A DNA stretch of 64,000 nucleotides from Dehalococcoidia bacterium (GTDB lineage Bacteria; Chloroflexota; Dehalococcoidia; Lucifugimonadales; Australimonadaceae). A program made the translations under genes and the position numbers. The DNA lies in the NCBI GenBank assembly GCA_965206315.1, contig OZ242210.1, positions 2,343,560-2,407,559 of the forward strand. The letters run 5' to 3'. This document shows positions 4,856 to 64,000 of the stretch, in pieces. Position 1 is the first letter of the stretch, and every line of letters starts with the position of its first letter. A model generated the notes under the pieces. The model searched no databases and had not been told where the DNA came from. It worked only from the letters and a program-made list of their open reading frames with translations.

Positions 4856-4900
4856 GTCATGCTGAGCGGAGCCGGAGGCGGAGTCGCAATATCTCTCGGG
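4856..4900 (+). repeat. repeat module A (GTCATKCYGAGCGGAGC...ATCTCTCGGG)
   Basis: 'gtcatgctgagcggagccggaggcggagtcgcaatatctctcggg'. Near-identical to 9806-9850. Confidence 0.8.
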
Positions 4901-4907
4901 CGCGGCC

Positions 4908-5357
4908 TCAGGCGGCCCGGTCCTCGACCACGAGGTTGCGCCCGACCGCCCGGAGCGCCTTCATCACCGAGCTGATGTGGGAGCGGTGGTCGGGGTCCAC
5001 CAGCTTCCGCACTGCGGACTCGCTGACGCCGAGGCGTTCCCCGAGCGCAACGTTGGTGATGCGCTGCTCCCGCATCGCCGTATAGAGCGCCAGCTTTGCC
5101 GCAACGATGGGGGGTACGGAGATCAGTACTTGCCCCTCTTCGAGTGGGCCTGGAACGGGGATGTCTCTGCGGGTCTCGACGTGCATTCCCAAGGCAACTT
5201 CGAGGCAGTCCTCGGCCATCGCTACCGCCTCTTCCCATGACCACCCCCCCGTGTTGGCCCCGTACACGTCCGGGAAGGTCACGTTGTACGCTTCTCTCCC
5301 GGACACTCGTGCTTCTTCCTCATCCCGGACGATATTGCAAGGATAGGCGTAGCGCAT
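4908..5357 (-). CDS. hicB: HicB-family antitoxin with C-terminal HTH
   Basis: The N-terminal HicB fold (YNVTFPDVYGANTGGWSWEEAVAMAEDCL) is followed by an XRE-like HTH (ITNVALGERLGVSESAVRKL). Confidence 0.7.
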   Translation of the reverse strand: MRYAYPCNIVRDEEEARVSGREAYNVTFPDVYGANTGGWSWEEAVAMAEDCLEVALGMHVETRRDIPVPGPLEEGQVLISVPPIVAAKLALYTAMREQRITNVALGERLGVSESAVRKLVDPDHRSHISSVMKALRAVGRNLVVEDRAA

Positions 5358-5360
5358 CGT

Positions 5361-9805: not shown

Positions 9806-10090
9806 GTCATGTTGAGCGGAGCCGGAGGCGGAGTCGAAACATCTCTCGGGGAGCGTTCGCGAGTGTGGTGCGTCTCCCGAGAGATTCCTCGGCTCCGCTC
9901 GGAATGACAGTATTGGCTCCCCTCTCCTGAGGGAGAGGGCAACGCGCTTCAGCGCGTGGGTGAGGGCCCTGCGTGTGGCGTGTGGGGCAGTCCGTCGTTC
10001 CTGCGCTTCAGCGCGCGCGGAGAGCAGGAACCTCACCTCGGGGTGTCTTGTCCCTTCCCCCTTGATGGGGGAAGGTTAGGATGGGGGTGA
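9806..10090. repeat. mosaic repeat cluster: A (9806-9850), inverted A (9874-9908), D (9919-9967), long B (9994-10031), E (10050-10090)
   Basis: All five modules recur elsewhere in the window. The cluster fills the E2/purH spacer. Confidence 0.8.
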
Positions 10091-14001: not shown

Positions 14002-14015
14002 GGGGGGGGGGGGGG
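14002..14015. repeat. G14 homopolymer tract
   Basis: 14 consecutive G, located 66 nt upstream of the ATG at 14081. Confidence 0.9.
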
Positions 14016-14785: not shown

Positions 14786-14820
14786 CCCCTCTCCTGAGGG
14801 AGAGGGTTAGGGTGAGGGCC
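14786..14820. repeat. repeat module D (CCCCTCTCC-YGAG-GGAGAGGG...GGGTGAGGG)
   Basis: 'cccctctcctgagggagagggttagggtgagggcc'. Confidence 0.75.
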
Positions 14821-14885
14821 CTGTGGAGGTGGAGCGGGGGAGTATGTCGTCGGTATGCAAACCGAAGAGAGCATGGAGTAGAGCG

Positions 14886-16256
14886 ATGCGAGCGATAGGC
14901 TATTTCACCGTGGACACGGAGGCGCGGAACGTCCGTGCAGCCAGCGAGGCCCGGATCCGGGCGTTCCAGGAGTACTGCGAGACGCGGCGGCACATCCCGC
15001 ACGGAACGTTCGCCGACCTCAAGGGCGACGGCGGCGGCGAAGGCTGGCAGGAGATGATGGACTTCATCCGCGAGAACCGCCAGGGCTACCTCGTCGTGAC
15101 GCCTGACGCCGCCCACCTCGGCCCTACGCTCGAGGAGCAGGTGGAGCGTGTGCTGGAGATGGACGCGCTCTCGTCCAAGGTCGTGTGCGACGACCTCGAC
15201 CTGCCGGACCCGTTGCAGAACGCGCTACGCAACTCCCGGAAGTCGGCGCAGCGGAGCGAGCGCATCAGGGCGGGGATGATGGCGAAGGCCGCGAAGGGCC
15301 TCGCCCTTGGCAAGCCGCCCTACGGCTACTACGTCACCGCTGACGGCGCGTTCCACGTCTCGCCGAAGGAGTCGGAGGTCGTCAAGACGATCTTCCGCCT
15401 CTACCTGCAGCCCGGAGGCAGTGTGCGGTCGGTCGCCGCGGCGCTGAACGCCCGGAACGTCCGCACGAGGAGCGGACGCCGCTGGAGCCTCGTGACCGTG
15501 CGGGACGTGCTGCGCAATGCCGCCTACATCGGCACGTACCACCGGTTCGGGATGCGCATACCCGGGAGCTACGAGTCCATCGTCTCGACGTTCGAATTCC
15601 GCCGGGCGCAGGACCGGCTGCAGGAGCGGAGCCCCTCGCAACGCACCTCGCGCCCCGCGCCCGTGTTCCTGCTCTCAGGCGTGCTCTACTGCCATCACTG
15701 CGGCAAGCGGATGATGGGCATCGTGCGCCGCCAGACGTGGCACCGGAAGGACGGCGAGCGGGCGCGCGCGCAGTACCGCTACTACCAGTGTCAGTCGCGC
15801 ATCAACCGCAACCAGTGCGACTACCGCACCATGAAGGCCGACGAACTCGAGGCGGAGGTCGTGCGCGTCGTGCGCGAACGGCTCGCGGCGGGCGAGCGCG
15901 GCGATGACCCCGGCGATGTCTCGTGGCTCGCGGGCGACAAGGCGCGCTCCGAGGCGACGATGCACTCGCTCGATAAGCAGTTCATGGAGGGCGTGCACCG
16001 CGCGGCAAACGGGACGATGTCGCTGTCGACGCTGCGCGGCGGCCTCGAGCAGTTGCGCGCGATCAAGCACGACCTGGGCGAGCAGATAGACAAGGCCGGC
16101 GACAGCGGAGCGGCGCGTGCCCGTCTGGAGTCGAACGTCACGAAGATACTCACCGAGTGGGACGGCCTCCCGGCCACCGACCGCCGCGACCTCCTCCGCT
16201 CCGTCGTCTCGAAGGTCACCGTCAAGCGCGGCAAACCGGAGATTACCCTCCGCTAG
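14886..16256 (+). CDS. large serine recombinase homologue with degenerate catalytic residues
   Basis: Has a resolvase-like N-domain, a recombinase domain (KPPYGYYV, VVKTIFRLY, SVRSVAAALN, WSLVTVRDVLRNAAYIGTY), a zinc ribbon (CHHCGKRM...YYQCQSR..NQC) and a coiled coil. The expected Y.R.S nucleophile motif reads YFTVD, and the expected DRLSR reads DAAHL. Confidence 0.75.
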   Translation: MRAIGYFTVDTEARNVRAASEARIRAFQEYCETRRHIPHGTFADLKGDGGGEGWQEMMDFIRENRQGYLVVTPDAAHLGPTLEEQVERVLEMDALSSKVVCDDLDLPDPLQNALRNSRKSAQRSERIRAGMMAKAAKGLALGKPPYGYYVTADGAFHVSPKESEVVKTIFRLYLQPGGSVRSVAAALNARNVRTRSGRRWSLVTVRDVLRNAAYIGTYHRFGMRIPGSYESIVSTFEFRRAQDRLQERSPSQRTSRPAPVFLLSGVLYCHHCGKRMMGIVRRQTWHRKDGERARAQYRYYQCQSRINRNQCDYRTMKADELEAEVVRVVRERLAAGERGDDPGDVSWLAGDKARSEATMHSLDKQFMEGVHRAANGTMSLSTLRGGLEQLRAIKHDLGEQIDKAGDSGAARARLESNVTKILTEWDGLPATDRRDLLRSVVSKVTVKRGKPEITLR

Positions 16257-17314: not shown

Positions 17315-17332
17315 TTAGGGGACCTCGCCTGA

Positions 17333-17405
17333 TGTAGGGGCGTCCCTTGTGGGCGCCCTGCTTGGTCCCTTCCCCCTTGATGGGGGAAGGTTAGGATGGG
17401 GGTGA
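17333..17405. repeat. repeat modules F (17333-17358) and E (17365-17405)
   Basis: 'tgtaggggcgtcccttgtgggcgccc' and 'gtcccttcccccttgatgggggaaggttaggatgggggtga'. The same F-E pair occurs at 59999-60071. Confidence 0.8.
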
Positions 17406-17447: not shown

Positions 17448-17828
17448 CAAGAGGGCCGGGCGGCCGCTCCGGCGTCGCCGGGGAGGAAAGTCCGGACTCC
17501 GCCGGGCAGGGTGCTGGGTAACGCCCAGGCGCAGCGATGCGACGGAAAGTGCCACAGAGACCACAGCGCCGATGGCCCCGCGTTCTGCGGGGGACAGGCA
17601 AGCGTGAAACGGTGCGGTAAGAGCGCACCAGGTCCCGGTGCAAGCCGGGATGCTGGCAAACCCCACCCGGAGCAAGGCCAAATAGAGGGACGTCTCCGCC
17701 CGGCGGAGCGCAGCGCCCGGCTGCTGTCCCCGGGTAGGCCGCACGATCCCTTCCGGCAACGGAGGGACCAGATAGATGGCCGCCGCCTCGCACGCGAGGT
17801 ACAGAATCCGGCTTACAGGCCCTCTTGG
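17448..17828 (+). ncRNA. rnpB: RNase P RNA, bacterial type A
   Basis: Contains GGAGGAAAGTCCGGACTCC (P4 5' strand) and ACAGAATCCGGCTTAC (P4 3' strand). Also contains GTGAAACGGTGCGGTAAGAGCGCACC and GCAAACCCCACCCGGAGCAAGGCCAAATAG. P1 pairs 'aagagggcc' with 'ggccctctt'. Ends are accurate to within a few nt. Confidence 0.85.
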
Positions 17829-17870
17829 CGCTCGTCTGCCTTGTTGGGTGGAGAGCGAAAAGCACCTGCT

Positions 17871-18046
17871 CCTCTCGCCCTCTGAGAGAGGGTGCCGCGC
17901 GAGCGGCGCGGTGAGGGACTGTCATTCCGAGCGGAGCCGTCGGCGATAGCCGAGGGCGGAGTCCCGCGCTTTAGCGCGCAGAATCCTCTCGGGGAGAACC
18001 CCTCGCCCTCTGGGAGAGGGTGCCACGCCAGCGGCGGGTGAGGGTT
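17871..18046. repeat. mosaic repeat cluster D (17871-17918), long A (17921-17994), D (17999-18046)
   Basis: Fills the spacer between rnpB and the 3' end of the first Rieske gene. Confidence 0.8.
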
Positions 18047-18048
18047 GT

Positions 18049-19359
18049 CTAGCGCGAGTGGGGGTAGGCGAGCTCGAGGTTGGGCGGCTCGTCCACCTTG
18101 GCGTAGAGCCAGTCGTGCATGTGCTCGTACCAGGACTCGCCCTTCGGGAGCGTGCCGATGGCGGAGCGCACGCGATACCACTCCGGGTTCTCGACGCACG
18201 GCGGCGTCACGTTGTCGTAGTGGAGGGCCTTCGCCGCGTTCAGGAGACGGCGCCGCACCTGGATGATCATGCCGTCCGAGCGTCCGAGGTGCTCGATGCT
18301 GCGGTTCTGGACGGGCCCCATGCTCTCGGTGACGGCCTGGTCCTGCAGGAAGACGGTCGCGATGCCGGTGAACGTCTCGGTGCGCTGGAGGTTGCGGTCT
18401 ATCTCGTAGTCGTTCTTGCGGTTGGCGCGCGGGCGGAAGCGTCCGAGCGGGCCCGCGGTATCGGGCAGCAGCTCGCCCGCAGGGTGCGTCGCGTTGCCGA
18501 GCACGCCGAACCGCCTGCTGTCGGCGACGTTCTTCGTGGGATGCCAGGAGACCGTCCAGACCATCGTGTGGTGGTCGTCCATCGGCACCCAGATGTGGCC
18601 GGGCACGGTGCCGTCGGCGGCGGCAGGGAAGAAGGTGAAGATGGGAAAGAGGAACTGGGTGATGCGCCAGTAGGTGGTCTCCTCGTTTTCCTCGCGGTTC
18701 GCGCCGTAGACGACGCCGTACTTCGTGGGAACGACCTCCAGCGTGGGGTGCTTGTCGTTGTGCCAGACGCCGATGTTGCCCTCAGCGTCCGGGTCCAGCC
18801 GTCCGTGGAGGAAGAAGAGGTGGCTGGTGTCGATGTCGCCCTCGAGGCCCTGCATCCAGTTGCAGGCGCGCTGCGCGAGGGAGAAGTTGCGCTGCTCCTC
18901 CGGCATGGCGGTCCACTCGAAGTCGGGCAGTCCGGGCGGTTCGCCCTCGCCGAGGTACGCCCACACGACGCCGCCGTGGACCGCGCCGCGGTACGCCCAC
19001 GCGCGGATCTTGTCCTTGAAGCTGCTGTCGCCGGGCTCGTTGGGCTGGTCGACGCACTGGCCGGTGACGTCGTACTTCCAGCCGTGGTAGACGCACCGGA
19101 GGCCTCCCTGCTCGTTGCGGCCGTAGAAGAGCGAGGCGCCGCGGTGCGGGCACGTCTCGGAGAAGACGCCCACATCGCCCTTGGAGTCGCGGAAGACGAT
19201 GAGGTCTTCGCCGAGCAGGCGGAAGCGCTGGGGATCGCAGTCGGGGCCGCCGAGCTCCTCGACAGGCATGATGGGGAGCCAGTAGCGGCGCATGAGTTCG
19301 CCCATCGGCGTTCCCTTGCCCACCTGCGTCAGCATCTCGTTGTCTGCCGTGCTCAGCAT
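18049..19359 (-). CDS. Rieske (2Fe-2S) non-heme-iron oxygenase, alpha subunit (paralogue 1)
   Basis: Rieske motif [25 protein letters not shown] and mononuclear Fe motif [13 protein letters not shown]. Confidence 0.85.
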
Positions 19360-19494
19360 GACGGATCCTCCGTGTCCTGCCTTGGACTGCGCTCCGATTA
19401 CGCGCTATCTTATAGCCGTGTCGTTGCAGTTGCCATTGTGGCGATGCGGACGCTCCGGCTTCAAGAGGGCAGGGGCGCAGAGGAAGGAGCACTT

Positions 19495-26638: not shown

Positions 26639-26794
26639 GACTCCCCCCTTGCCGCGTATGAGCGTATGCTGTTGCGAAACCGTGCGCCCCCGTTAAGATT
26701 GAGGGACACGGCTGCAAGAGCAGGGGCGCATTATACGCACGGACGCGCAGGCGCGCCATGCGCGTGCGCCAATGAAGGGTAAAGGAGGCGCCGC

Positions 26795-28069
26795 ATGTTG
26801 AGCCACGCTGACAACGAGCTCATCACCCGCACGGGCAGGGGCACGCTGATGGGCGCGCTCTTCCGCCGCTACTGGCTGCCCGCGCTGATCTCCGACGAAC
26901 TCGAGGCGGACGGGGCACCGGTGCGCTTCCGGCTGCTGAACGAGGACCTCGTCGCGTTCCGGGACACGAGCGGCGAGGTGGGCATCCTTTCCGAGTTCTG
27001 CCCGCACCGCGGCGTCTCGCTTGCGCTCGGTCGCAACGAGTACGACGGCCTGCGCTGCCTCTACCACGGCTGGAAGTTCGACGTCGCCGGTCGATGCGTG
27101 GACATGCCGACGGAGCCGGTGGAGAGCGGTTTCCGCAACAAAGTGAGGGCAGGGGCGTACGCGGTGCGCGAGCACGCCGGTGCGGTGTGGGTGTACATGG
27201 GCGCGCCTGAGAGCGAGCCGCCGTTCCCCGTCTACTACTGGACGACGGTGCCGGACTCGAACCGCATCATGGCGAAGTGGATACAGGACGCGAACTGGCT
27301 GCAGAGCCTGGAGGGCGGCATCGACACGGTGCACGCCTCGTTCCTGCACAACACTGCCGAGGGACCGATGGTTGCGCCCGGCGCGGCGAGCGGGAACAAC
27401 CTGATGTTCAACGACACGAGGCCGAAGCTGGAGATAGAAGAGACCTCCTACGGCTTCCGCTACGCCGCGATACGAAGAGGACCGGAGGAGGACAAGCGCT
27501 ACGTGCGGATCACGCCCCACATCATGCCGGCGTCGTCGTATCCGCCGTTCTCCAGGGAGGACAACCGCATCTGGAACATGTGGGTCCCCCGCGACGACGG
27601 CACGTGCTGGGCGTGGGATGTGTGCTTCAACGAGACGAAACCGATGTCCGACGAGTTGAAGGCGCAGCTGAAGGAGTACCGGGGCTACAACGCCTTCGAT
27701 CCCAGGACATTCGTGAAGTACGCGGGGCCGCAAAACATGTGGATGCAGGACCGCGAGCTGATGAAGAAGGAGAGCTGGTCCGGCATCCGCGGGCTGTTCG
27801 TGCAGGACAACGCGGTGCAGGAGAGCATGGGCCCCATCGTCGACCGCACCATCGAGCACCTGGGCACCACGGACGCGGCCATCATCAGGGCGCGCAAGCT
27901 GTACATCAAGGCCGCCATCGCGCTCGCGGAGGAGGGCGTCGAGCCGCCCGGCGTGTGGGAGCAGGGCGACTACGAGCTGATCCGCTCCGACGCGTACGTG
28001 CAGCCGGTGGACGTTTCGTGGAAGGCCGAGCGTCCGCTGGAAGAGCGGTTCGCCGTCGGCGTGAGTTGA
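26795..28069 (+). CDS. Rieske non-heme-iron oxygenase alpha subunit (paralogue 2)
   Basis: CPHRGVSLALGRNEYDGLRCLYHGW and EGGIDTVHASFLH. AAGGAGG RBS. Confidence 0.85.
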   Translation: MLSHADNELITRTGRGTLMGALFRRYWLPALISDELEADGAPVRFRLLNEDLVAFRDTSGEVGILSEFCPHRGVSLALGRNEYDGLRCLYHGWKFDVAGRCVDMPTEPVESGFRNKVRAGAYAVREHAGAVWVYMGAPESEPPFPVYYWTTVPDSNRIMAKWIQDANWLQSLEGGIDTVHASFLHNTAEGPMVAPGAASGNNLMFNDTRPKLEIEETSYGFRYAAIRRGPEEDKRYVRITPHIMPASSYPPFSREDNRIWNMWVPRDDGTCWAWDVCFNETKPMSDELKAQLKEYRGYNAFDPRTFVKYAGPQNMWMQDRELMKKESWSGIRGLFVQDNAVQESMGPIVDRTIEHLGTTDAAIIRARKLYIKAAIALAEEGVEPPGVWEQGDYELIRSDAYVQPVDVSWKAERPLEERFAVGVS

Positions 28070-30065: not shown

Positions 30066-30106
30066 TCAACATGGATGGACAGGATGGACAGGATGGACAG
30101 AATAGG
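30066..30106 (-). repeat. repeat module G (inverted; three tandem GGATGGACA units)
   Basis: 'tcaacatggatggacaggatggacaggatggacagaatagg'. Confidence 0.75.
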
Positions 30107-30144
30107 GGAAGGTGAGGCAAGGTTCCGGTCATGGGAGGTGCGCC

Positions 30145-31455
30145 ATGCTGACGAGGGAAGAGAACGAACTGCTCTGCCGCACGGGACCGAACGATCCCGC
30201 GGGTGAGCTGCTCCGGCGCTACTGGCAGCCCATCGCACTGGCCGAGGAGTTGCCGCCGGGCAGCGCGCCGATGCCGGTACGCGTCCTGAGCGAGGACCTG
30301 ACGCTCTTCCGCGACCAGTACGACCGCCTCGGGCTCGTGGCGCGGCACTGCGCCCACCGTGCGGCGGACCTGAGCTACGCGCGCATCGAGGACGGCGGTC
30401 TGCGCTGCCTGTACCACGGCTGGCTGTACGACATCCACGGCAACTGTCTGGAGCAGCCGGGCGAGCCCGAGGGCAGCACGTTCAAGGACAAGATTCAACT
30501 GCTCTCGTACCCGGTACAGGAGCGCGGGGGCGTCGTGTTCGCGTACCTGGGGCCGGGCGAGCCGCCGCTGCTGCCGGCGTACGAGTTCCTTGACATCGCG
30601 CCGGAGAACCGCGTCGTCACGAAGATCTACCACGAGTGCAACTACCAGCAAGGGAACGAGGGGAACATCGACCCGCAGCACCTCTCGTTCCTGCACTTCT
30701 TCATCCGCGAGGACGCCAGCGGCAGCCGCGTCGCGACGGGCAACGTGCAGGGCGGGGCCGCGACGTCGAACCGCATGATGGGCGATGATCCGTCGCCGAC
30801 GATCGAGGTCGAGGAGACGGACTACGGCATCCGCATCTACGCGGTGCGGGACACGGACGCGGGCGACGACTACGTGCGCATCACGAACTTCATCTACCCG
30901 AACCTGGCGTCGTTCCCGGCGTTCCCGGGCGTGTTCGGGGTCAACTGGCACGTGCCGATAGACGACACGCACCACTGGAAGTTCATGTTCATGGTGCGGT
31001 CGGAGGGGCCGCTGCCGAAGGACGCGCTGGGCCTGACGATGTTCGAAGGACTGAAAGAGGACTACACGAACGAGCGGAGCCTGCGCAACCGCTACCTGCA
31101 GGACCGTGAGGAGATGCGGACGCGCAGCTTCCTCGGCATGGGGCCGAGTTTCGCGGTCCATGACATGTGGGCGACGGAGGGTGAGGGCGCGATACAGGAC
31201 CGGACGACGGAGCACCTCGGCTACACGGACAAGGCGGTTGCCCTCTCGCGGCGTCTGCTGCTCAAGGCGACGCGACAGGTGCAGGACGGCGCGGAGGCCC
31301 CGCACGTGGTCCGCGAGGCGTCGGCCAACGTCTTCAACCACCTTGGCGCGTGGCAGGAGGTCATCCCGAAGTCGGAGGAGTGGTCGTCCGTGTGGAAGCG
31401 GAATGCCGAGGCGCTGGCGGCGCGGATGGGCTCGAACGGGCACAACGGTGCGTAG
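30145..31455 (+). CDS. Rieske non-heme-iron oxygenase alpha subunit (paralogue 3)
   Basis: Start at MLTREENELLCRTGP (M12 of the ORF). CAHRAADLSYARIEDGGLRCLYHGW and EGNIDPQHLSFLH. Confidence 0.85.
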   Translation: MLTREENELLCRTGPNDPAGELLRRYWQPIALAEELPPGSAPMPVRVLSEDLTLFRDQYDRLGLVARHCAHRAADLSYARIEDGGLRCLYHGWLYDIHGNCLEQPGEPEGSTFKDKIQLLSYPVQERGGVVFAYLGPGEPPLLPAYEFLDIAPENRVVTKIYHECNYQQGNEGNIDPQHLSFLHFFIREDASGSRVATGNVQGGAATSNRMMGDDPSPTIEVEETDYGIRIYAVRDTDAGDDYVRITNFIYPNLASFPAFPGVFGVNWHVPIDDTHHWKFMFMVRSEGPLPKDALGLTMFEGLKEDYTNERSLRNRYLQDREEMRTRSFLGMGPSFAVHDMWATEGEGAIQDRTTEHLGYTDKAVALSRRLLLKATRQVQDGAEAPHVVREASANVFNHLGAWQEVIPKSEEWSSVWKRNAEALAARMGSNGHNGA

Positions 31456-31504
31456 GATTTTGGGTGAGGTTGGGTAGAGGGGACAGCACGGAGGAGCTGT
31501 TGTC

Positions 31505-32743
31505 ATGCTGACGCCCGAGCAGAACGACCTGCTGCACAAGGTGGGGCCCGGCACGCCTATGGGGCGTCTGATGCGCCGCTACTGGCATCCGGTCGCCGCC
31601 GTCGGAGAGTTGGACGACAACCCGGTCAAGGCGATACGCCTGATGGGCGAGGACCTCGTGCTGTTCAAGGACGTGTCGGGCGACTACGGGCTGCTGGAGC
31701 GTCACTGTCCTCACCGCAGGGCCGACCTGTCGTACGGCTGGGTGGAGGAGGACGGCGGTCTGCGATGCAGCTACCACGGATGGCTGTTCGATACGACGGG
31801 CCAGTGCATCGGGCAGCCGTTCGAGCAGATCGCGCATCCGGAGGCGAACTTCAAGGAAAAGGTGCGGGCGACGGCGTACCACGTGCAGCCGAAGGCGGGG
31901 CTACTGTGGGCGTACATCGGCGAAGGTCCCGTGCCGGAACTGTGGGACTGGGATCGCTACCACGACCGTGGGTACAAGCAGGTCGTCTTCTCGGAGATCC
32001 CGTGCAACTGGCTGCAGTGCCAGGAGAACTCGATAGACCCGGTGCACTTCGAGTGGCTCCACTCGAACCAGTCGCTGCGCCGCGAAGGGAGCAAGGGGTA
32101 CGCGCCGACCCACACGCGCATCGCTTTCGAGGAGTTCGAGTTCGGCATCCGCTATCTGCGCATCCGGACGGACACGGACGAGGAGAACGAGCTGTGGAAG
32201 GTAGGGCGCGTCTGCCTGTGGCCGAACGCGCTCTACGCGGCAGGCCACTTCGAGTGGCGGGTGCCGGTAGACGACGAGCACACGATGAGCGTCGGGTGGT
32301 TCCTCGATCCGATACCCGGTGAGCAGCCGTTCGAGCAGGAGCGCATCCCGTACTGGCACTCGCCCATCGTGGACGAGGAGACGGGTCGCTGGATATCGAG
32401 CCACATCATGAACCAGGACTTCATCGCGTGGGTGGGGCAGGGCAACGTGTCCGACCGGTGGAACGAGCACCTGGGTGAGAGCGATCGCGGCGTGATCATG
32501 CTGCGGAAGCAGTTCATGGACGATCTGGCCGTCATCGAGGACGGTGGCGATCCGAAGGGAGTGCTGCGCGACGCGTCGCGCAACGACAAGATGCCGCTGC
32601 CGCGCATCCGCAACGAGGTCGGGCAGTTCGCGCCGACAACGTACCCGCCGGTGTTTCCGTTCCAGGTGGACCAGCCGAAGGAGATCGAGGCGGAGTACCA
32701 CGCGTACTGGGCGGAGTATGGGGGCGCGCTGGCGCCGTCGTAG
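31505..32743 (+). CDS. Rieske non-heme-iron oxygenase alpha subunit (paralogue 4)
   Basis: CPHRRADLSYGWVEEDGGLRCSYHGW and ENSIDPVHFEWLH. Confidence 0.85.
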   Translation: MLTPEQNDLLHKVGPGTPMGRLMRRYWHPVAAVGELDDNPVKAIRLMGEDLVLFKDVSGDYGLLERHCPHRRADLSYGWVEEDGGLRCSYHGWLFDTTGQCIGQPFEQIAHPEANFKEKVRATAYHVQPKAGLLWAYIGEGPVPELWDWDRYHDRGYKQVVFSEIPCNWLQCQENSIDPVHFEWLHSNQSLRREGSKGYAPTHTRIAFEEFEFGIRYLRIRTDTDEENELWKVGRVCLWPNALYAAGHFEWRVPVDDEHTMSVGWFLDPIPGEQPFEQERIPYWHSPIVDEETGRWISSHIMNQDFIAWVGQGNVSDRWNEHLGESDRGVIMLRKQFMDDLAVIEDGGDPKGVLRDASRNDKMPLPRIRNEVGQFAPTTYPPVFPFQVDQPKEIEAEYHAYWAEYGGALAPS

Positions 32744-32782
32744 GGCGTCCGCTGCCGATGTCACGATGAGGAGCCGCTTTCG

Positions 32783-34018
32783 ATGCTGACGCCTGACCAG
32801 AACGATCTGCTCGCCAGGGTGGGGCCCGGTACGCCTATGGGGCGGCTGATGCGCCGCTACTGGCATCCGGTGGCCGCCGTCGGGGAGTTGGACGACAACC
32901 CGGTCAAGCCGATCCGCCTGATGGGCGAGGACCTCGTGCTGTTCAAGGACGTGTCCGGGGAGTACGGACTGCTGGAGCGTCACTGCCCGCATCGCCGCGC
33001 CGACCTCTCGTACGGGTGGGTGGAGGAGGACGGCGGTCTGCGGTGCAGCTATCACGGGTGGCTGTTCGATACGTCGGGACGCTGCATCGGGCAGCCGTTC
33101 GAGCAGATCGCGCACCCCGAGGCGAACTTCAAGGACAAAGTGCGGGCCACGGCGTACCACGTGCAGCCCAAGGCCGGACTGCTGTGGGCGTACATCGGCG
33201 AAGAACCGGTGCCGCAGCTGTGGGACTGGGACCGTTACCACGACCGGGGCTTCAAACAGGTGGTCTTTTCGGAGGTCCCGTGCAACTGGCTGCAGTGCCA
33301 GGAGAACTCGATAGACCCGGTGCACTTCGAGTGGCTGCACTCGAACCAGTCGCTCCGCCTCCAAGGCGACCCCGACTACTCGCCGACGCACACGCGGGTC
33401 GGGTTCGAGGAGTTCGAGTTCGGCATCCGCTATCTGCGTATCCGCTCGGACACGGACGAGGAGAATGACCTGTGGAAGGTGGGCCGTGTCTGTCTCTGGC
33501 CGAACGCGCTCTACACGGGCCACTTCGAATGGCGGGTGCCGGTAGACGACGAGCACACGCTGAGCGTCGGGTGGTTCATCGACCCGATCCCCGGGGAGCA
33601 GCCGTTCGAGCAGGAGCGCATCCCGTACTGGCACTCGCCCATCGTGGACAAGGAGACCGGCCGCTGGATATCCAGCCACATCATGAACCAGGACTTCATT
33701 GCGTGGGTGGGGCAGGGCAACGTGTCCGACCGGTGGAACGAGCACCTGGGTGAGAGCGACCGTGGGGTCATCATGCTGCGCAAGCGGTTCATGGACGACC
33801 TGGCCGTGATTGAGGACGGGGGCGATCCGAAGGGGGTGTTGCGGGACGCGTCGCGCAACGACAAGTTGCCGCTGCCGCGCGCCAATGTCCGGACCGGGCT
33901 GTACGAGCAGACGAAGTATCCGCCGGTCTTTCCGTTCCTGGTGGACCAGCCGGAGGCGGTCAATGCGGAGTACCACGCGGCGTGGGTGGAATACGGCGGC
34001 GAGTTGCCTTCGAAATGA
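32783..34018 (+). CDS. Rieske non-heme-iron oxygenase alpha subunit (paralogue 5; tandem duplicate of paralogue 4)
   Basis: Same motifs as paralogue 4. Collinear along the full length, with most residues identical by eye. Confidence 0.85.
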   Translation: MLTPDQNDLLARVGPGTPMGRLMRRYWHPVAAVGELDDNPVKPIRLMGEDLVLFKDVSGEYGLLERHCPHRRADLSYGWVEEDGGLRCSYHGWLFDTSGRCIGQPFEQIAHPEANFKDKVRATAYHVQPKAGLLWAYIGEEPVPQLWDWDRYHDRGFKQVVFSEVPCNWLQCQENSIDPVHFEWLHSNQSLRLQGDPDYSPTHTRVGFEEFEFGIRYLRIRSDTDEENDLWKVGRVCLWPNALYTGHFEWRVPVDDEHTLSVGWFIDPIPGEQPFEQERIPYWHSPIVDKETGRWISSHIMNQDFIAWVGQGNVSDRWNEHLGESDRGVIMLRKRFMDDLAVIEDGGDPKGVLRDASRNDKLPLPRANVRTGLYEQTKYPPVFPFLVDQPEAVNAEYHAAWVEYGGELPSK

Positions 34019-56688: not shown

Positions 56689-57867
56689 ATGAAGAACCGC
56701 GACGCGAGATACAGGCAGATTTCGTTGCCGACGGCAGTCCTGGCGGTTGTGTTCCTTGCTGCCTGCGCCTCTCCGACCCCAACTCCAACCCCGTTCCCGA
56801 CGCCAACCCCGACGCCCACTCCCGCTCCGCCCGAAGCCCCCGCTGCGCCAGCGGTGAAGTCCCTGGGCACCACCGTCATCGAGGCGTCGTGGGAAGAACC
56901 GGTCAGCGAGCGGCCGGTCCGTGAATATGAGTACCGCTTCCGCACCGAGTCCAGGCCATGGGTCGAGGTACTGGACACCGGCCACGTAGAACGCAGGGTC
57001 CGGATCGTTGCCCTGGCACCAGACACGACCTACGGCGTACAGGTGCGGGCGCTGAGCAGCGCCGGGACCGGCGGGTGGTCGGCGACCGGGACTTCGACGA
57101 CGGACATGCTTCCAACAGCCACTCCAACGCCGACGCCGACTCCAACTCCAACCCCGACGCCTACGCCAACCTCAACGCCCACACCCACGCCCACGCCGAC
57201 CCCGGTCCCAACCTCCACGCCAACTCCGACACCGACGCCGACCTCTACGCCCACACCCACGCCCACGCCGGACTACTTTGCCATCACGAAACAGGCCGTC
57301 GTGAAGGTGGAGACAGAGCGGGCGCAAGGGTCAGGCTTCTTCGTGGGCTCCGACGGCCAGCGCGGACTGGTCCTGACGAGCTACCACGTCATCGATTCCA
57401 ACCTGAACAACGTCAGGGTTGCTGTCGGCCTGGAAACCTACGATGCAGACGTTCTTGGTTACGACGCTGAGAAAGATGTGGCCATGCTCCGGGTGTGCTG
57501 CTCGTCGTCGTTCGACTCCATCTCGATGAGTCCTGAACAGCCTCCTGCGGGAACGCGCGTCATAGCCGTCGGGTTCCCGCTCGGGAGCAACGATGCAGTG
57601 ATCACGAGCGGGATCGTGTCGCGGACCTTCTTCGATGACGAGCACGGGGCGCACGTTGTTCAGACTGACGCACCGCTCAACCCCGGGAACAGCGGCGGCC
57701 CTCTCGTATCGCTGTCAACCGGAGAAGTCGTTGGCATACCGACCAGTGTGATACGCCGGTCGGGAGGGATATCAGTGGAAGGCACCGGCTATGCGATAGC
57801 GAGCAGCAGTATCGTTACCATCCTTGGCGACCTGGAGTCGGGTGCCCTGAGACACGCACCTCCGTAA
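56689..57867 (+). CDS. secreted lipoprotein: FN3-like domain, Pro/Thr linker and trypsin-like (S1C) serine protease domain
   Basis: Lipobox FLAACAS. FN3-like region SWEEP...EYEYRFR...TYGVQVRALS. Catalytic His (LTSYHVI), Asp (EKDVAMLRV) and Ser (NPGNSGGPL). Confidence 0.75.
   Translation: MKNRDARYRQISLPTAVLAVVFLAACASPTPTPTPFPTPTPTPTPAPPEAPAAPAVKSLGTTVIEASWEEPVSERPVREYEYRFRTESRPWVEVLDTGHVERRVRIVALAPDTTYGVQVRALSSAGTGGWSATGTSTTDMLPTATPTPTPTPTPTPTPTPTSTPTPTPTPTPVPTSTPTPTPTPTSTPTPTPTPDYFAITKQAVVKVETERAQGSGFFVGSDGQRGLVLTSYHVIDSNLNNVRVAVGLETYDADVLGYDAEKDVAMLRVCCSSSFDSISMSPEQPPAGTRVIAVGFPLGSNDAVITSGIVSRTFFDDEHGAHVVQTDAPLNPGNSGGPLVSLSTGEVVGIPTSVIRRSGGISVEGTGYAIASSSIVTILGDLESGALRHAPP
57112..57270 (+). 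repeat. coding low-complexity (Pro-Thr)n tract
   Basis: About 50 residues of TPTPTPTP/TSTPTP, encoded by degenerate ACN-CCN dinucleotide-codon repeats. A shorter tract lies at about 56770-56830. Confidence 0.8.
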
Positions 57868-57928: not shown

Positions 57929-58423
57929 TTATGACTCGACCAAGCGCACATAGAAGCAGTAGATGATCAGCCCGTAGGCGGGCAGGCAGACGAGGAAATA
58001 GACGAGATAGGAGGCCTTGGTCGGCTTGAAGCCCTCGTCCACGGTTCCGCCAGCTGCCTCTATGGCCTTCCTTCGCGCCCGCTTTCTGCACCACTGCACG
58101 AACTTGCGAACGACGTATCCGGCGACCGCGCCGTAGATAGCGGCTTGCAGTATGGAGTCCCTGCCCAACGGCTCCCAGCCCGTGAGCTCCGCCAGCCAGA
58201 CCGCCCCGGCAGCGAGCCCGGCGCCCGCCGCCGCAGAGAGGAGGTCCCAGACAAGTTCCGCCTCCATGGACAGAAGGCCACACAGAGCGCCTAGCGCGGC
58301 GCCAGCGATCGCCAGAGGCAGTTTCAAGTCTGGGCCACCGGCCCATTCGAGGAGCCAGCCGGCGCCGTAGCCGACGAACCATCCGACGACGCCGAGGACG
58401 ACAAAGGGCAGGTTGCTGGGCAT
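57929..58423 (-). CDS. hypothetical integral membrane protein
   Basis: Start at MPSNLPFVVLGVVGW (M22 of the ORF). Has 4-5 hydrophobic spans. No family was recognised. Confidence 0.45.
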   Translation of the reverse strand: MPSNLPFVVLGVVGWFVGYGAGWLLEWAGGPDLKLPLAIAGAALGALCGLLSMEAELVWDLLSAAAGAGLAAGAVWLAELTGWEPLGRDSILQAAIYGAVAGYVVRKFVQWCRKRARRKAIEAAGGTVDEGFKPTKASYLVYFLVCLPAYGLIIYCFYVRLVES

Positions 58424-58557
58424 GCTGCGCGCCTTTGCTCCTAACTCGTTTGCCGCATCATAGCCGTCCCTCTTGGCCGCGCACATACCGGTACGTGTGC
58501 GCTACAATCCCCCCCAGATCGACCGACCGCCCGATAGAGCCGAAGGAGGTTCGCCTC

Positions 58558-59868
58558 ATGCTGACCGCACAGGAGAACAAAGACCTCACCAGCGTCATGC
58601 CCGGCACGCCGATGGGCGAGCTGTTCCGGCGCTACTGGCACCCCATCGCCGCTGCCGCCGAGTTGGACGACCGCCCCACGAAGGCAGTGCGCGTCCTCGG
58701 CGAGGACCTCGTCCTCTACAAGGACAAGTCCGGCACGATGGGGCTCATCGACCGCTTCTGCCCCCACCGCAGGGTGGACCTCTCCTACGGCATCCCGGAG
58801 GAGCATGGCCTGCGCTGCATGTACCACGGCTGGATGATGGACGAGACCGGACAGTGCATCGAGCAGCCGTTCGAGGAGACGGTCCACCCGGACGGGCGCT
58901 TCAAGGAGAAGGTGAAGGTCGCGGGATACCCCGTCGAGTCGTACGGCGGGCTCGTCTTCGCCTATCTCGGCCCGCAGCCCGCGCCGCTGCTCCCGCACTG
59001 GGAGACGTTCGAGTGGGAGGGCGGCTGGAGCGACATCGGCATCGTCGAGCTCCCCTGCAACTGGCTGCAGTGCATGGAGAACTCCATGGACCCGGTGCAC
59101 CTGGAGTGGCTGCACGGCTACTGGGGCGTCCGCCAGCAGCAGGACAAGGCCGTCAGGCTTGGCCTCGCCGAGGCCGACTCGTTCCCCACGGTGCCGCGCA
59201 GGCACCGGAAGATCGGTTTCGACGTCTTCGACTACGGCCTCATCAAGCGCCGCGTCGTCGAGGGCACCACCGAGGACGACCACGACTGGAAGGTCGGCCA
59301 CCCGGTGCTCTTCCCCAACGTCCTCTTCGTCGGCAGCGTCGTCAACTGCACGCTCCAGTACCGGGTGCCGGTCGACGACACTCACACCATGCACATCACC
59401 TGGTTCTTCTACCGCGCCGCCGAAGGCGCCGAGCCGCCGAAGCAGGAGAAGGTGCCGTACTGGTACGTGAACCTCTACGAGCCCGACGGCACGCTCATCC
59501 CTGACCTCGTGAACCACCAGGACTTCGTCGCGTGGATCACGCAGGGCCCGAACGCCGAGCGCGAGAAGGAGAAGCTGGGCGAGTCGGACCGCGGCATCAT
59601 CCTCTACCGCAAGGTGCTGAAGGAGCAGGCCGGCATCGTCCAGGACGGCGGCGAGCCGATGGGCGTCGTGCGCGACCCCGAAGTCAACAAGCGCATCGAC
59701 CTCCCGCTCGAACGCTGGCAGGCCCTCTCTGACGTGACGTGGATGACGCGCTACATGCCGCTGCAGCAGGGCGAGCCGCCCGAGCTCGTGTCCACCATCG
59801 AGCAGGTGCTCAGCACGTGGGCAGGCGAGAAGCCCTGGACGGAGGCGCAGGCCACACTCAACCAGTAG
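58558..59868 (+). CDS. Rieske non-heme-iron oxygenase alpha subunit (paralogue 6)
   Basis: Start at MLTAQENKDL (M42 of the ORF) after a GAAGGAGG RBS. CPHRRVDLSYGIPEEHGLRCMYHGW and ENSMDPVHLEWLH. Confidence 0.85.
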   Translation: MLTAQENKDLTSVMPGTPMGELFRRYWHPIAAAAELDDRPTKAVRVLGEDLVLYKDKSGTMGLIDRFCPHRRVDLSYGIPEEHGLRCMYHGWMMDETGQCIEQPFEETVHPDGRFKEKVKVAGYPVESYGGLVFAYLGPQPAPLLPHWETFEWEGGWSDIGIVELPCNWLQCMENSMDPVHLEWLHGYWGVRQQQDKAVRLGLAEADSFPTVPRRHRKIGFDVFDYGLIKRRVVEGTTEDDHDWKVGHPVLFPNVLFVGSVVNCTLQYRVPVDDTHTMHITWFFYRAAEGAEPPKQEKVPYWYVNLYEPDGTLIPDLVNHQDFVAWITQGPNAEREKEKLGESDRGIILYRKVLKEQAGIVQDGGEPMGVVRDPEVNKRIDLPLERWQALSDVTWMTRYMPLQQGEPPELVSTIEQVLSTWAGEKPWTEAQATLNQ

Positions 59869-60160: not shown

Positions 60161-61261
60161 CTACAAGTTGTAGAACTCCTTCGCGTTCGTCTCCAGGATC
60201 TTCCGCGCGACGGCATCGCTGATGCGCCCCTCGCTCGCCCATTTCTTGACCTCGTCGAGCGCCGCGAGGTTCGCCGAAGGGTCGGAGTGGCAGTAGTCCG
60301 TGCCGATGATGAGGTTGTCCTCGGTGCCGAAGTCCAGCAGGTGCTCGATGTGGTCCATCGGGTCTATCGTCACGTACAGCCGGTCCTCCTTGAAGAGGTC
60401 GCGCTGCAGATCGAACGTCGCCGAGCGGTCGTGCAGCGCCAGCGACCGCTGCACCATCCCCAGGTTGGAGAGCGCGTAGGAGATCCACGCTCCGCCCGCC
60501 TCGATGAACCCGAACTTGAGGTTCGGGAACTTGCTCGGCAGCCTGCTGGAGACGACCGCCATGAACGCCGCCATCACCGGGAAGCCCCGGTCCCACTCGC
60601 GGCCGGGCAGGGGGTGGCCGGTGTGGATGCACAGCGGCATGTTCAGCGAGTCTGCCTCCTCGTATACCGGGAAGAAGTGCTTGTCACTCACCGGCTTGTC
60701 GAGGTCGAACCCGCGCTTGAAGATCGCGCACGCGCCGTTCTCCTTCGCCCAGCGCAGTTCCGCGACCGCCTTGTCGGGGTCGAGCAGGGGCAGCACAGCC
60801 GCCCAGCGCAGGCGTCCGTTGCTCATCGCGCACCGATCTGCCAGCCAGCGGTTGTACGCACCCGTGAGCTCCGCCTCCGCGTCCGCATCCTGTGCGCCGT
60901 AGCGGATGAAGAACGTCGGGAAGATGACCTGGGCGTCCACCCCCATCTTGTCCATGTCCTTCAGGCGCCCCGCGACGCCCGCCGCGTCGTCCAACTCCCG
61001 GTGCTCGCGCAGCGGGTGGTGTACCTCGTCGCGGATGATGCGCGGCTGCAGGCGGTTCTCGACCAGCCACCAGCGGTTGCCGAGCGCTCCCGCTATGCGA
61101 ACGCCCGGCGCCTCCGGGCGGTCGGCGACCGCGGAGCCCACCTGCGCGTCGGGCGAGATGGATACGGGCACGAACTTGGAGCCCATCTCTTCCATGCTCT
61201 GCCACGTGGCCTCGTTCTCGTCCACGTGCGTATCAGCGTCGATCACACCAAACGTCGCCAT
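60161..61261 (-). CDS. amidohydrolase-2 (PF04909) family protein
   Basis: VIDADTHVDE, CIHTGHP and IIGTDYCHSD. Confidence 0.75.
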   Translation of the reverse strand: MATFGVIDADTHVDENEATWQSMEEMGSKFVPVSISPDAQVGSAVADRPEAPGVRIAGALGNRWWLVENRLQPRIIRDEVHHPLREHRELDDAAGVAGRLKDMDKMGVDAQVIFPTFFIRYGAQDADAEAELTGAYNRWLADRCAMSNGRLRWAAVLPLLDPDKAVAELRWAKENGACAIFKRGFDLDKPVSDKHFFPVYEEADSLNMPLCIHTGHPLPGREWDRGFPVMAAFMAVVSSRLPSKFPNLKFGFIEAGGAWISYALSNLGMVQRSLALHDRSATFDLQRDLFKEDRLYVTIDPMDHIEHLLDFGTEDNLIIGTDYCHSDPSANLAALDEVKKWASEGRISDAVARKILETNAKEFYNL

Positions 61262-61343
61262 GGCTCTGACCTTCCTTTACGCAAAATCTGCTGCTCTTCA
61301 GCCCGGCCTGGATGAACCGAGCCGACGCTCGCTGGCAACTATA

Positions 61344-62675
61344 CTACGCGTCCGCAGGCTGCGGCTCCGTCGGAGCCTTCCTCGGCTGCGTCGCGAACAC
61401 CATCAGCACCAGCATCAGCACCGCGACGCTCGCGAACAGCAGGAACGCCCCGGTGTAGCTCCCCGTCTCGTCGCGGATGTGCGCCGCGAGCAACGGCCCG
61501 AATGGGCTGATCATGCGGAACGGCGCGGTGAACCCCTTGATCGCTCCCAGCGACGTCCTCCCGAAGTAGTTCGCCAGGAGCAGAATCTCGATGATGTTCC
61601 GCATCCCCGCCGCCACGCCGAAGAGTATCGCCCAGAGCACCGCGAGGGGGAAGCCGCCCGCCGGGACCAACAGCAGCGCCATCGTCGTCAGCACCAGCAC
61701 CGCCTGCGCCATGGCGCCCAGGCGCACGTGCACGCGTTCCATGATGAACCCCGTCGGCAGGATGGACGACGCCGACGACATCCCGAAGATGGCCACGACT
61801 GCTACCGCCTGCCCCTCGCTCAACCCGCGGTCGTGGAAGATGGGCGCCATGTGCAGGTTCGTCGCCCCCTGCACGAACGGCGTGCAGACCAGGAAGACCG
61901 TGATGAGCCAGAACGCCCGCGTCCCCCGCGCCTCCCGCAGCGTCCACGACACCTCTTCGACGATTCCCGTCGTTCCTGCGGAGGCAGGAACCCCGCTCCC
62001 ACCCGAAGCGTCGCGCAGGTCGGTCGCGCCGTCCGGCAGCAGTCCGTGGTCCTCCGGCTGGCTGCGCATCAGCAACAGCGCAGGCCCGATGATGGCCAGG
62101 CACGCGAACCCGGAGAGCGCCACGTACGCCGTGCGCCAGTCCGACGCGTCCATGATGAGGAAACTCACGATGGGGAGCACCACTTGTCCGGCGCGATGGC
62201 CCATCGCCTTCACCGCAAGCGTCCGCCCGCGCTGACGCACGAACCACTTCGCTATCGCGACCGACGCCCCGATCTCCACGCCCGCCGTCACTGACCCTCG
62301 CGCCAGCCCGAAGTACGTCCAGAAGTGCCACGGCTCTTGTATCGTCGACAGTCCGAACAGCGCACCCGCGAGCGCCAGGCCACCCAGCGCCACCACCACA
62401 CGCGGTCCATACTTGTCGACAAGCCACCCCGTGACGCTCGATGCGATCGCCCCCGACGCGCTCCCCATGAGGAACCCCAGCGCGATCACCCTGTATGACC
62501 AGCCTAGCTCGTCTTGGATCGGTTTGACGAAGACCGTGAGCACCGGCCCCAACGCCGGCACCTCCGCGAACGTCGCAACGAACGCCGCTCCGACGATGGC
62601 CCACCCGTAGAAGACGCGGTGCGACGGCCAGAAGCGCGGTATCCCCGGCGGGCCTGCCTGCCCCTTCCCCCTCAC
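61344..62675 (-). CDS. MFS transporter
   Basis: ORF 61344..62867, trimmed to the GTG at 62675, which overlaps the esterase stop (GTGA). Has about 12 hydrophobic spans. The central loop contains repeat module B. Confidence 0.75.
61969..61991. repeat. repeat module B, intragenic and in frame (MFS central loop)
   Basis: 'gtcgttcctgcggaggcaggaac', identical to 7981-8003. Here it is read from the opposite strand as GVPASAGTT. Confidence 0.8.
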
Positions 62676-63706
62676 GCAGTGCCGAACGCTTTCCGCAGCT
62701 CGCCTGCCGCCTCGTCGATGGCGTCCCACGTCCGCGTGAACGGGACGCCCGCGTTGAACAGCGCGTGGACCTGCCCGTCGTAGCGTGATAGCTTCGTTGG
62801 CACGCCCGCCTCGCGCAGCCGCTCCGCGTACGCCTCGCCCTCGTCGCGCAGCGGGTCGTACTCGCACGTCAGCACGAACGCGGACGGCAGCCCGGACAGG
62901 TCAGTCGCGGCCATCGGCACAACGTACGGGTTGGACGCGTCCGCCTCATCGCGCACGTAGCACTGCAGGAAGTAGACCATCGTGTCGTAGTTGAGCCCGT
63001 ACCCCTCGCCGTTCTCGATGTAGGACGGACGAGTGAGGTCGTTGTCGACCACGGGGCAGATCAGCGACTGGTGCGCGAGCCGTGGCCCACCCTCGTCGCG
63101 CGCACGAAGCGCCACGGCTGTGGCGAGGTTCCCGCCCGCGCTCGACCCCGCAACTGCGAGCCGCGACGGATCGCCGCCGAACGACCCCGCGTTCGCCGCA
63201 ACCCACTCCGTCACCGCGTAGCAGTCGTCGAGCGGAATGGGAAACTTGTGCTCCGGCGCGAGCCGGTAGTCCACCGACACGACGATGGCTCCGGATGCAT
63301 CCGCCAGCGCCCGGCACGTCGGGTCGTTCGTCGCGATGCTGCCGACCACCCATCCGCCCCCGTGGAACCACACGCACACCGGCAACCCACCTCCCCCTTG
63401 AAGGGAGAGGTCGCCGCCTCCCTTGTCATTTCGAGCGGAGCGCAGCGGAGTCGAGAAATCTCTCGGGTGCCTGCTCCCCTCTCCCTCTGGATGGGGGTGA
63501 ACAGCCGGCACGTACACCCGCACCGGAACGTCGCCATGCGGCCCCGGCGCAGCGACGTCACTCACCCACGCGACCTCCGGCCCGGGGAGGCGCTGCTGCG
63601 ACTCCGACATCGCGCGCGCCTCTTCGGGGCTCACCTCGTGCTGGGCGGGCAGGCCCATGGCGGCCTGCTTCTCCAACGACGCTTTCGCTTCAGGGTCGAG
63701 CGGCAC
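62672..63706 (-). CDS. alpha/beta-hydrolase esterase/lipase, hormone-sensitive-lipase (HSL) family, carrying a repeat-derived insertion
   Basis: HGGGW oxyanion motif, nucleophile elbow GSSAGG, and the DPLRDE and H(ALF) region. GTG start follows a GAAGGAGG RBS. Confidence 0.85.
63386..63502. repeat. composite repeat cassette (D-type hairpin, A, D/E hybrid) inside the esterase CDS, 117 nt = 39 codons
   Basis: Encodes [39 protein letters not shown]. The nucleotide sequence is nearly collinear with the intergenic cluster at 63781-63875. Confidence 0.8.
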
Positions 63707-63753
63707 GCCGCGCCTCCTTCGGACCGGATGCGCCGGAGTATACGCGAGGGATT

Positions 63754-64000
63754 GTCATTCCGAGCGGAGCGCAGCGCCTGCCTTGTCATTTCGAGCGGAG
63801 CCGAGAAATCTCTCGGGGGCTGTCCCCTCTCCCTTGAGGGAGAGGGAGAGGGTGAGGGTGAGGGTGAGGGTGAACCCTTACTCGTCATTCCCGCACCGGC
63901 GGGAATCCAGGGTGAGCGGGCAGGTCACGCGGCGGCGGGGCGTGGTGTGGGAGAGGCCTGTTCCCCTCGCCCTCTGGGAGAGGGTGCCGCGTCAGCGGCG
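63754..64000. repeat. mosaic repeat cluster: partial A (63754-63776), A (63785-63819), D with (GGTGAGG)4 heptamer run (63824-63875), C (63884-63940), D (63963-64000, cut by the window edge)
   Basis: All modules are shared with other spacers in the window. Confidence 0.8.

Follow-up and report, generated by a model that had tools for sequence, protein, structure and literature searches.

The esterase gene and its surroundings

The window analyzed here is a stretch of 64,000 nucleotides (nt) from the genome of a Dehalococcoidia bacterium (assembly GCA_965206315.1, contig OZ242210.1). Close to its end lies a gene for an esterase of the HSL family (Abhydrolase_3), part of whose coding sequence is made of repetitive extragenic palindrome (REP)-type repeats. 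The gene (62672..63706, minus strand) is an intact open reading frame (ORF) of 344 amino acids (aa) with a GTG start codon, and its ribosome-binding site (RBS), AAGGAGG, is located 6 nt 5' of this codon. A conserved promoter-like and 5' untranslated region (5' UTR) element that includes the RBS, CCTCGCGTATACTCCGGCGCATCCGGTCCGAAGGAGGCGCGGC (63707..63749, minus strand), lies between the start codon and an intergenic REP array (63753..63986, plus strand). In the related loci L081, L082 and L084-L089, the spacers upstream of the esterase paralogues end with an element of approximately 40 nt, CGCGTATACTCCGGCGCATCCGG...GGAGG, which shows small variations. Its apparent parts are, in this order, a -10 box (TATACT or TATAAT), a short 5' UTR hairpin and the RBS. 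When the window was compared with Rfam, RNase P was the sole match, and the esterase locus contained no known RNA family.

Related loci carry two or three tandem esterase paralogues, then a gene for an MFS transporter and then an Amidohydro_2 gene. The window has the same order, with the last paralogue followed by the MFS gene (61344-62867) and the Amidohydro_2 gene (60164-61276).

The esterase matches PF07859 (Abhydrolase_3) over residues 112-317 (E = 1.9e-76; 256.9 bits versus a cut-off of 25). Invariant columns in an alignment of 86 sequences comprise H115-G118 (HGGG), G187-S-S189-A-G191 (GSSAG), D284 (DPLRD) and H314, and the query esterase deviates from the consensus at 1 of the 113 columns that are at least 90% conserved. 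The AlphaFold2 model, which was built with the 86 sequences, has a mean predicted local distance difference test (pLDDT) value of 92.4 and a predicted template modeling (TM) score of 0.91. Using Foldseek, the model was matched to Est8 (4YPV) with E = 1e-38 and a target-normalized TM score of 0.94; the corresponding score to EST2 (1EVQ) was 0.92. Model and Foldseek matches together indicate an alpha/beta-hydrolase fold with an N-terminal cap, as in solved HSL members. Est8, EST2 and PestE (3ZWQ) have the fold, the HGGG motif, the GxSxG elbow and the Asp/His pair in common with the query (target-normalized TM scores of 0.91 to 0.94). These solved esterases are approximately 300 to 320 residues long, compared with 344 in the query, and Est8, for which a residue-level alignment was made, has a short beta2-beta3 loop. 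In line with the first-pass annotation of this DNA, which had described the RBS, the GxSxG elbow and the C-terminal catalytic region as intact, the gene retains AAGGAGG, and its product retains HGGG, GSSAG, the catalytic histidine and the aspartate of DPLRD.

The beta2-beta3 loop is expanded by repeat DNA

The additional length of the query lies in the beta2-beta3 loop. The expanded loop (residues 68-107; 63386..63505, minus strand) consists of a REP-derived array and takes the place of the 7-residue xTDDAxP of orthologues. It comprises 40 residues between the strand of residues 60-66 (VRVYVP) and that of residues 108-114 (LPVCVWF, followed by HGGG). The first-pass annotation had placed an in-frame insert at 63386-63502, and we confirmed these coordinates: the encoded segment (residues 69-107) directly follows VRVYVPA and precedes the HGGG strand. 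Its 39 extra residues, however, are not a net gain of 39. Alignment to orthologues revealed an insertion between the conserved strand and HGGG with a net gain of 33 residues, because the original 7-residue loop was replaced. In the alignment with Est8, query residues 1-68 correspond to chain residues 38-108 and query residues 103-341 to chain residues 110-347, so that 34 query residues (69-102) stand against a single Est8 residue at the loop.

The frame is open across the 120 nt of the insert, without a stop codon. In the AlphaFold2 model, no secondary structure was assigned between strands 60-66 and 108-114; pLDDT averaged 51 to 52 in blocks covering residues 71-100 and was below 50 for residues 86-94. 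Thus, structure prediction returned the insert as a low-confidence loop without secondary structure. We conclude that the loop, which is approximately 40 residues long and rich in Gly, Pro, Ser and Arg, is probably disordered. This does not agree with the earlier assignment of the site to an enzyme core region, since a beta2-beta3 loop modeled as disordered (pLDDT of ~50) is found there.

The insert had also been described as close to the active site. It is near HGGG in the sequence, but its proximity does not extend beyond the sequence. In the alpha/beta-hydrolase topology, the loop leads into the N-terminus of a strand of 7 residues, and HGGG is found at the opposite, C-terminal end of this strand. 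Judging from this established topology rather than from coordinates, the loop should sit on the side of the sheet that faces away from the active site, and the enzyme therefore probably stays functional despite the insert.

The insert is a mosaic of REP-type stem-loops

The first-pass annotation had listed repeat modules in the insert, and all of them are present. A G-type hairpin, CCTCCCCCTTGAAGGGAGAGG, located at 63390..63410 on the plus strand and read as DLSLQGGG, contributes the strongest stem of the predicted RNA structure and is similar to the G family copies at 10050, 17365 and 60029 (family D17). The insert RNA folds somewhat better than shuffled sequences (z = -2.45), chiefly owing to this hairpin. 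Module A, a TGTC-tagged REP-like unit, TGTCATTTCGAGCGGAGC...GAGAAATCTCTCGGG, follows at 63424..63467 (plus strand); its copies align, and others are found at 4855, 9805, 9892 (minus strand), 17920, 20034, 63753 and 63784. The window contains 7 matches to the 17-mer of module A, versus 0.35 expected, and 4 to its 15-mer, versus 0.18. The third module is the remnant of an E-type unit (63469..63502, plus strand; family D5), which has lost one hairpin arm and is 84% identical to 63956-63986. Unlike this remnant, the E unit is present in its full form, PHPNPLPEGEG, in orthologues. The insert (117 to 120 nt) is thus a small mosaic of REP-type stem-loops, composed of the E-type unit, the TGTC-tagged module A and the G-type hairpin.

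The intergenic array upstream of the esterase gene has the same orientation as the genic copy. It consists of a partial A unit (63753-63770), a short A unit (63784-63817), an E unit with a GGGTGA tail (63820-63875), a type C CGTC REP (63883-63912) and a further E unit (63957-63986). A near-identical intergenic copy had been claimed, and indeed 72 of the 75 paired bases (96%) are identical between genic 63415-63502 and spacer 63775-63875. The local alignment scores 86, compared with 15.5 +/- 2.5 for shuffled sequences. It contains two gaps: 10 nt are absent from the spacer copy and approximately 26 nt from the genic copy, and the latter deletion takes out one arm of the E hairpin. The distance between the two copies, given earlier as 300 bp, is approximately 360 nt from start to start.

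Relationship of the modules to known REP classes

Approximately 30 module copies are present in the window, mostly in mixed intergenic arrays and far above the number expected from shuffling. We describe the families as follows: C, CGTC-ATTCCCGC-nnnn-GCGGGAAT-CCA; F, CGTC-GTTCCTGC-GGAG-GCAGGAAC; A, TGTCATTYCGAGCGGAGC...ATCTCTCGGG; E, CCCTCKCCC-n3-4-GGGAGAGGG followed by GGGTGA repeats; G, CCTTCCCCC-n4-GGGGGAAGG; and H, GTAG-GGGCGYCCC.... The repeat units in the loop DNA of the query and its orthologues, CCCTCTCCC-n-GGGAGAGGG, GGATTCCCGC-n4-GCGGGAATGACGG and GAGGTTCCTGC-CTCC-GCAGGAACGACGG, are likewise found in intergenic arrays, both in the window and at related loci. Genic and spacer arrays are organized head to tail in a single orientation, and there is one head-to-head pair of A units (9805/9892). 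Among 89 loci, the modules were confined to records from Dehalococcoidia or related Chloroflexota.

The tags are TGTC for module A (63424), CGTC for module C (63883) and CGTCGTTCCTGC for module F, while copies of E and G carry TGTC or the degenerate TGCT and TGTT. Module C contains the core ATTCCC...GGGAAT, which is the core of dRS3. According to reference PMC3733652, dRS3 belongs to CGTC-1. The GTAG- and CGTC-tagged REP superfamilies were defined by Di Nocera, De Gregorio and Rocco in 2013 (PMC3733652); CGTC REPs have a CGTC, TGTC or CCTC tag, a stem of 8 to 9 bp starting with A-T pairs, a loop of 4 to 5 nt and a CCA tail, and no dedicated transposase was found for them (PMC3733652). Module C shows every CGTC-1 feature, namely the CGTC tag, an 8-bp stem ATTCCCGC/GCGGGAAT starting with AT, the loop ACAG and the tail CCA. 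The 8-bp stem of module F encloses a loop of 4 nt but starts with GT; modules E and G have stems of 8 to 9 bp that start with C. Module A, the unit found in the query gene, starts with AT, but its stem is short and interrupted and its loop is long. By these features, the modules resemble the CGTC/TGTC-tagged REP class, either exactly (C) or loosely and in part (F, E, G and A).

Like the REPs of PMC3733652, the modules are GC-rich, form short stem-loops, carry a CGTC or TGTC tag, are mostly intergenic and sometimes clustered, and include some in-frame intragenic copies, which occur there as single units, dimers or clusters encoding 20 to 82 aa. They differ in that the host is a Chloroflexota metagenome-assembled genome (MAG), families are mixed within one array, and only module C has all features. 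Furthermore, head-to-head dimers dominate in PMC3733652, whereas the arrays described here are head to tail. In-frame intragenic REPs are known from several species (Rickettsia RPE-4 and RPE-6, Opitutus, Thauera), with clusters encoding 43 to 82 aa, and the recB genes of two Xanthomonas species carry different REPs at about the same site (PMC3733652).

An analogy with Rickettsia palindromic elements (RPE) had been proposed. It holds, since RPE-4 and RPE-6 were equated with CGTC REPs (PMC3733652), which the modules resemble. RPE (Ogata et al. 2000, as cited in PMC3184786 and PMC3733652) are likewise palindromic repeats located in frame in coding genes that they do not destroy, and small repeats fused in frame with genes were reviewed by Delihas in 2011 (PMC3184786). 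Elements of the RPE-1 type are described as single units of approximately 105 to 146 bp (PMC3184786), whereas the query insert, compared with RPE in size and organization, is a mosaic of three units of approximately 20 to 45 nt each in another host lineage.

Clusters of different small repeats, placed side by side as in our arrays, also occur in other bacteria. The dRS3/Correia mosaics of Neisseria are of this kind, as the BIME-like REP mosaics of E. coli would be, and both have been described mainly as intergenic.

A reading as a miniature inverted-repeat transposable element was rejected: the ends of the insert have neither a paired inverted repeat nor a true target-site duplication. The hexamer CCGGCA flanks the insert at 63379-63384 and 63505-63510, in a conserved Pro-codon context (VP.../LPV). 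Because of this context, and because a similar repeat flanks the loop of empty alleles, CCGGCA is not considered a true target-site duplication.

The same loop varies among relatives

Close relatives of the esterase are Chloroflexota MAG proteins with a modal length of 311 aa. We delimited the loop by R-V-Y-x-P and L-P-V-x-x-W-F-H-G-G-G. Among the first 120 matches, most close relatives have a 7-residue loop (xTDDAxP) and more distant ones have 5 residues (EGxGP). Esterases from other phyla have loops of 4 to 8 residues, usually 5; a contig scan for relatives returned one close relative (L001) and otherwise distant esterases, which were used as short-loop outgroups. Orthologues lack the query insert, and most close ones have 7 residues at its position.

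Approximately 40 close relatives among the first 120 matches have loops of 12 to 84 residues, which are composed from a small peptide vocabulary: PHPNPLPEGEG(N), NRQGLPGGEG, RGTLDSRLRGNDG, LRQAQDE, PPQTGEAGGSS and a further peptide of 11 residues. Another one, of 17 residues, is shared by the query and its upstream paralogue. In the DNA, the vocabulary corresponds to E, C, F and related hairpin units read opposite to the CGTC-tagged strand, and the order of units in the loops is always E, then C, then F (5' to 3'). In total, 33 of the 86 aligned relatives have loops of at least 12 residues, and no other internal position changes in length by more than 2 residues. The first-pass annotation had singled out this esterase as the clearest case of its kind in the window. 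The case is real, but it is not a one-off, given REP arrays at the same loop in these 33 relatives and in-frame units in two other genes of the window.

When the loop columns were left out of a neighbor-joining tree, filled alleles did not separate from empty ones but were interspersed with them, in all three paralogue clades and in the sister clade. The loop state differs within pairs that share 96 to 98.4% identity over the rest of the protein (for example, ATDDGGP versus a 20-residue loop). In the sister clade, the ancestral loop is DGAGP-like, and other repeat types have colonized the same position. In one locus of this clade (L088, 2781-2975), a 33-nt hairpin unit, TCTCCCCCGCAGACGGGGGAGGCGGGAGGAAGT, is repeated ~3.5 times in tandem in the loop and encodes PPQTGEAGGSS. 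An exact-match scan of JGI metagenome contigs for the 3' junction of the query insert yielded no match.

Filled alleles are not more degenerate than empty ones: at conserved columns they deviate from the consensus at 0.76 positions, compared with 1.66 in empty alleles. By the measure of sequence conservation, the esterase gene is still under selection, with its conserved columns retained, and its product is probably functional.

Repeats are a classic cause of misassembly, and the query gene could therefore be a chimera assembled across repeats or a pseudogene with an accidentally open frame. Truncation at the array is seen in several database entries (P0059, P0062 and P0080). In addition, a related esterase allele on a contig with 3x coverage (L089, 1670-1800) has a frameshift at the 5' junction of its REP array, which represents either a sequencing error or a casualty of array turnover. 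However, equivalent in-frame arrays are present in many independent assemblies, including contigs of megabase scale. In the query, the frame is open over 120 nt, all catalytic and conserved columns are kept, and the RBS and the conserved upstream element are intact. An artifact or a dead gene is thus very improbable.

The loop arrays may also be maintained because they are useful. Under exaptation, the REP-encoded loop would have a selected function, such as a flexible tether, partner or membrane binding, oligomer contacts or stability, and the array would be kept for it. In its favor, 33 of 86 relatives have kept in-frame arrays, all three paralogue clades are represented among them, and one frame per unit is consistently used in the esterases and in the MFS gene although other frames are open. 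This frame bias, however, is equally well explained by selection against bulky or charged frames. Moreover, ~60% of the relatives lack an insert, the loop has no predicted structure, and its sequence, length (12 to 84 aa) and module content vary among near-identical proteins. We consider a selected function of the loop to be quite unlikely.

Targeting could alternatively account for the confinement of all 33 expansions to one loop. In this view, the machinery that mobilizes the repeats would insert them preferentially into the loop DNA, which might imitate a REP end or offer a CGTC/GACG target, much as IS200/IS605 elements recognize target tetranucleotides. Consistent with this, the empty allele GACGGACGACG contains GACG (CGTC in the complementary strand) three times at this position, and the sister clade with its ancestral DGAGP loop was colonized at the same position by other repeat types. 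But GACG occurs 12 to 18 times per empty gene, better matches to REP tag ends are located elsewhere in the gene (for example, at ~820-830) without inserts, and no simple insertion next to any of the GACG motifs can be reconstructed from the sequences that flank the loop in filled alleles. When four empty alleles were scanned with REP tag-end probes and GACG was counted, neither a REP-end mimic nor a GACG target was supported as the cause of the hot spot. We regard targeted insertion as unlikely.

Similar arrays in paralogues and spacers

P0024, a 338-aa paralogue, has nearly the same E-A insert as the query at the same site when compared at the protein level. By synteny, it is probably the paralogue located just beyond the end of the window. 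In other genomes, the spacers between paralogues contain the same REP families in the same orientation. In locus L084, both tandem paralogues have an identical loop of 36 nt (AAG plus a 33-nt F unit), and the adjacent codons differ; identical loops within differing flanks point to gene conversion. In L087, the arrays of two paralogues start with nearly the same units at the 5' end but differ farther along. For P0024 and the query, the sign of conversion is seen at the protein level only. The fixed module order and the 96% identity between the genic and spacer copies fit local copying and differential loss at least as well as many independent transpositions.

REP units in other genes of the window

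In-frame REP units were also found in two other genes. The MFS_1 transporter gene (61344-62867, minus strand), which adjoins the esterase gene downstream, has an F-type CGTC REP in frame in its central loop (61969-61994). The orthologues in L084 and L085 share this unit, whereas those in L081 and L082 lack it. In L084 (~4860-4890), the MFS reading frame continues at its C-terminal end into an F REP on the tagged strand, which extends the 3' end of the ORF, and in L089 a gene for an IS110-family transposase is located downstream of the MFS gene. The second gene (7729-9792, plus strand) encodes a 687-aa E2 acyltransferase of a 2-oxoacid dehydrogenase complex. It contains three units in frame, one of type F and two of type C, all read on the tagged strand (7981-8006, 8602-8625 and 8914-8937). 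The units lie in unusually long linkers (approximately 139 and 206 aa), which connect the lipoyl (5-76), E3-binding (216-249) and catalytic (456-680) domains.

Some further features of the window were recorded. The RNase P RNA gene (17448-17831, plus strand; RF00010, 269 bits) has REP arrays on either side (17319-17405 and 17865-18036), and a run of 13 G at ~14002-14014 adjoins a C-type REP. Five Rieske/LigXa_C oxygenase genes confirmed by Pfam lie at 18052-19404, 26783-28066, 30106-31452, 31478-32740 and 58186-59865; an apparent tandem duplicate of the gene at 31478-32740 lies at 32744-34015 (repeat blocks with 79 to 95% identity). Several Amidohydro_2 genes, MFS genes and an ABC peptide-type transporter are located near the oxygenase genes, and the region looks like a catabolic neighborhood for aromatic or ester compounds. 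In addition, the window contains a ~500-nt Pro/Thr-coding repeat with a 6-nt period (56755-57279; CCNACN, PTPTPT...), a gene for a large serine recombinase (14811-16253, plus strand; Recombinase and Zn_ribbon_recom) and a HicB-like antitoxin ORF (4911-5360, minus strand).

Discussion

We propose, with a probability of roughly 0.8, that the insert is repeat DNA that is tolerated in frame and probably translated as a disordered surface loop of a functional esterase. Most likely, it represents tolerated selfish or neutral DNA and not a functional module. The first-pass annotation had left open whether the repeats were exapted or tolerated; orthologues without the insert and the intact catalytic motifs support tolerance, and only this part of the claim stands.

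The hot spot could be explained most economically by three factors acting together: a selection filter, as this loop tolerates extra length, persistence of arrays once they are present, and exchange between paralogues. Selection would purge insertions elsewhere in the gene and in unsuitable reading frames. Once in the loop, an array may turn over fast by gain, loss, duplication and partial deletion of units. It could be copied between the tandem esterase paralogues by gene conversion, and probably also from or to the adjacent spacer.

Several observations weigh against our proposal. TDDA is never kept in filled alleles; the original loop was therefore replaced and not merely split, and the event was not a clean insertion. 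All 33 expansions are in one loop although the fold has many surface loops, and tolerance alone does not obviously predict this confinement, which is only partly explained. The exact allele of the query was found just once in the protein database. The distance between the loop and the catalytic site rests on alpha/beta-hydrolase topology and not on measurement. Finally, a Y1_Tnp, RAYT or IS200-like transposase was not found in the ~43 ORFs of the window that were scanned.

Since in-frame intragenic REPs have already been documented (PMC3733652), the phenomenon is of a known kind. What is new is the occurrence in this host lineage, the mixing of families in head-to-tail arrays and the densely documented turnover at a single loop that tandem paralogues have in common; such recurrence with strain-level turnover goes beyond what was reported in PMC3733652. 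Our data thus add a Chloroflexota example of in-frame intragenic CGTC-like REPs, together with a population-level picture of turnover that earlier surveys lacked. The esterase loop is a natural and traceable case of non-coding selfish repeats becoming protein sequence, in which many independent alleles of one loop allow the steps to be followed. For annotation, it is relevant that REP-derived peptides can inflate or split gene calls in these MAGs, and for enzyme engineering, that an HSL esterase has a position accepting 12 to 84 extra residues.

A more far-reaching idea, which we regard as speculative and rather improbable, is that REP turnover in this Dehalococcoidia lineage is a standing generator of hypervariable disordered protein segments, with the esterase loop as a preferred landing pad. 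If so, loop arrays would be shared among tandem paralogues by gene conversion, and the same units would build transporter loops and the inter-domain linkers of E2. The importance of the finding would increase if REP turnover proved to be a general source of disordered segments in the lineage. REPs would then be regular raw material for new peptide segments, some of them selected, and not just occasional passengers.

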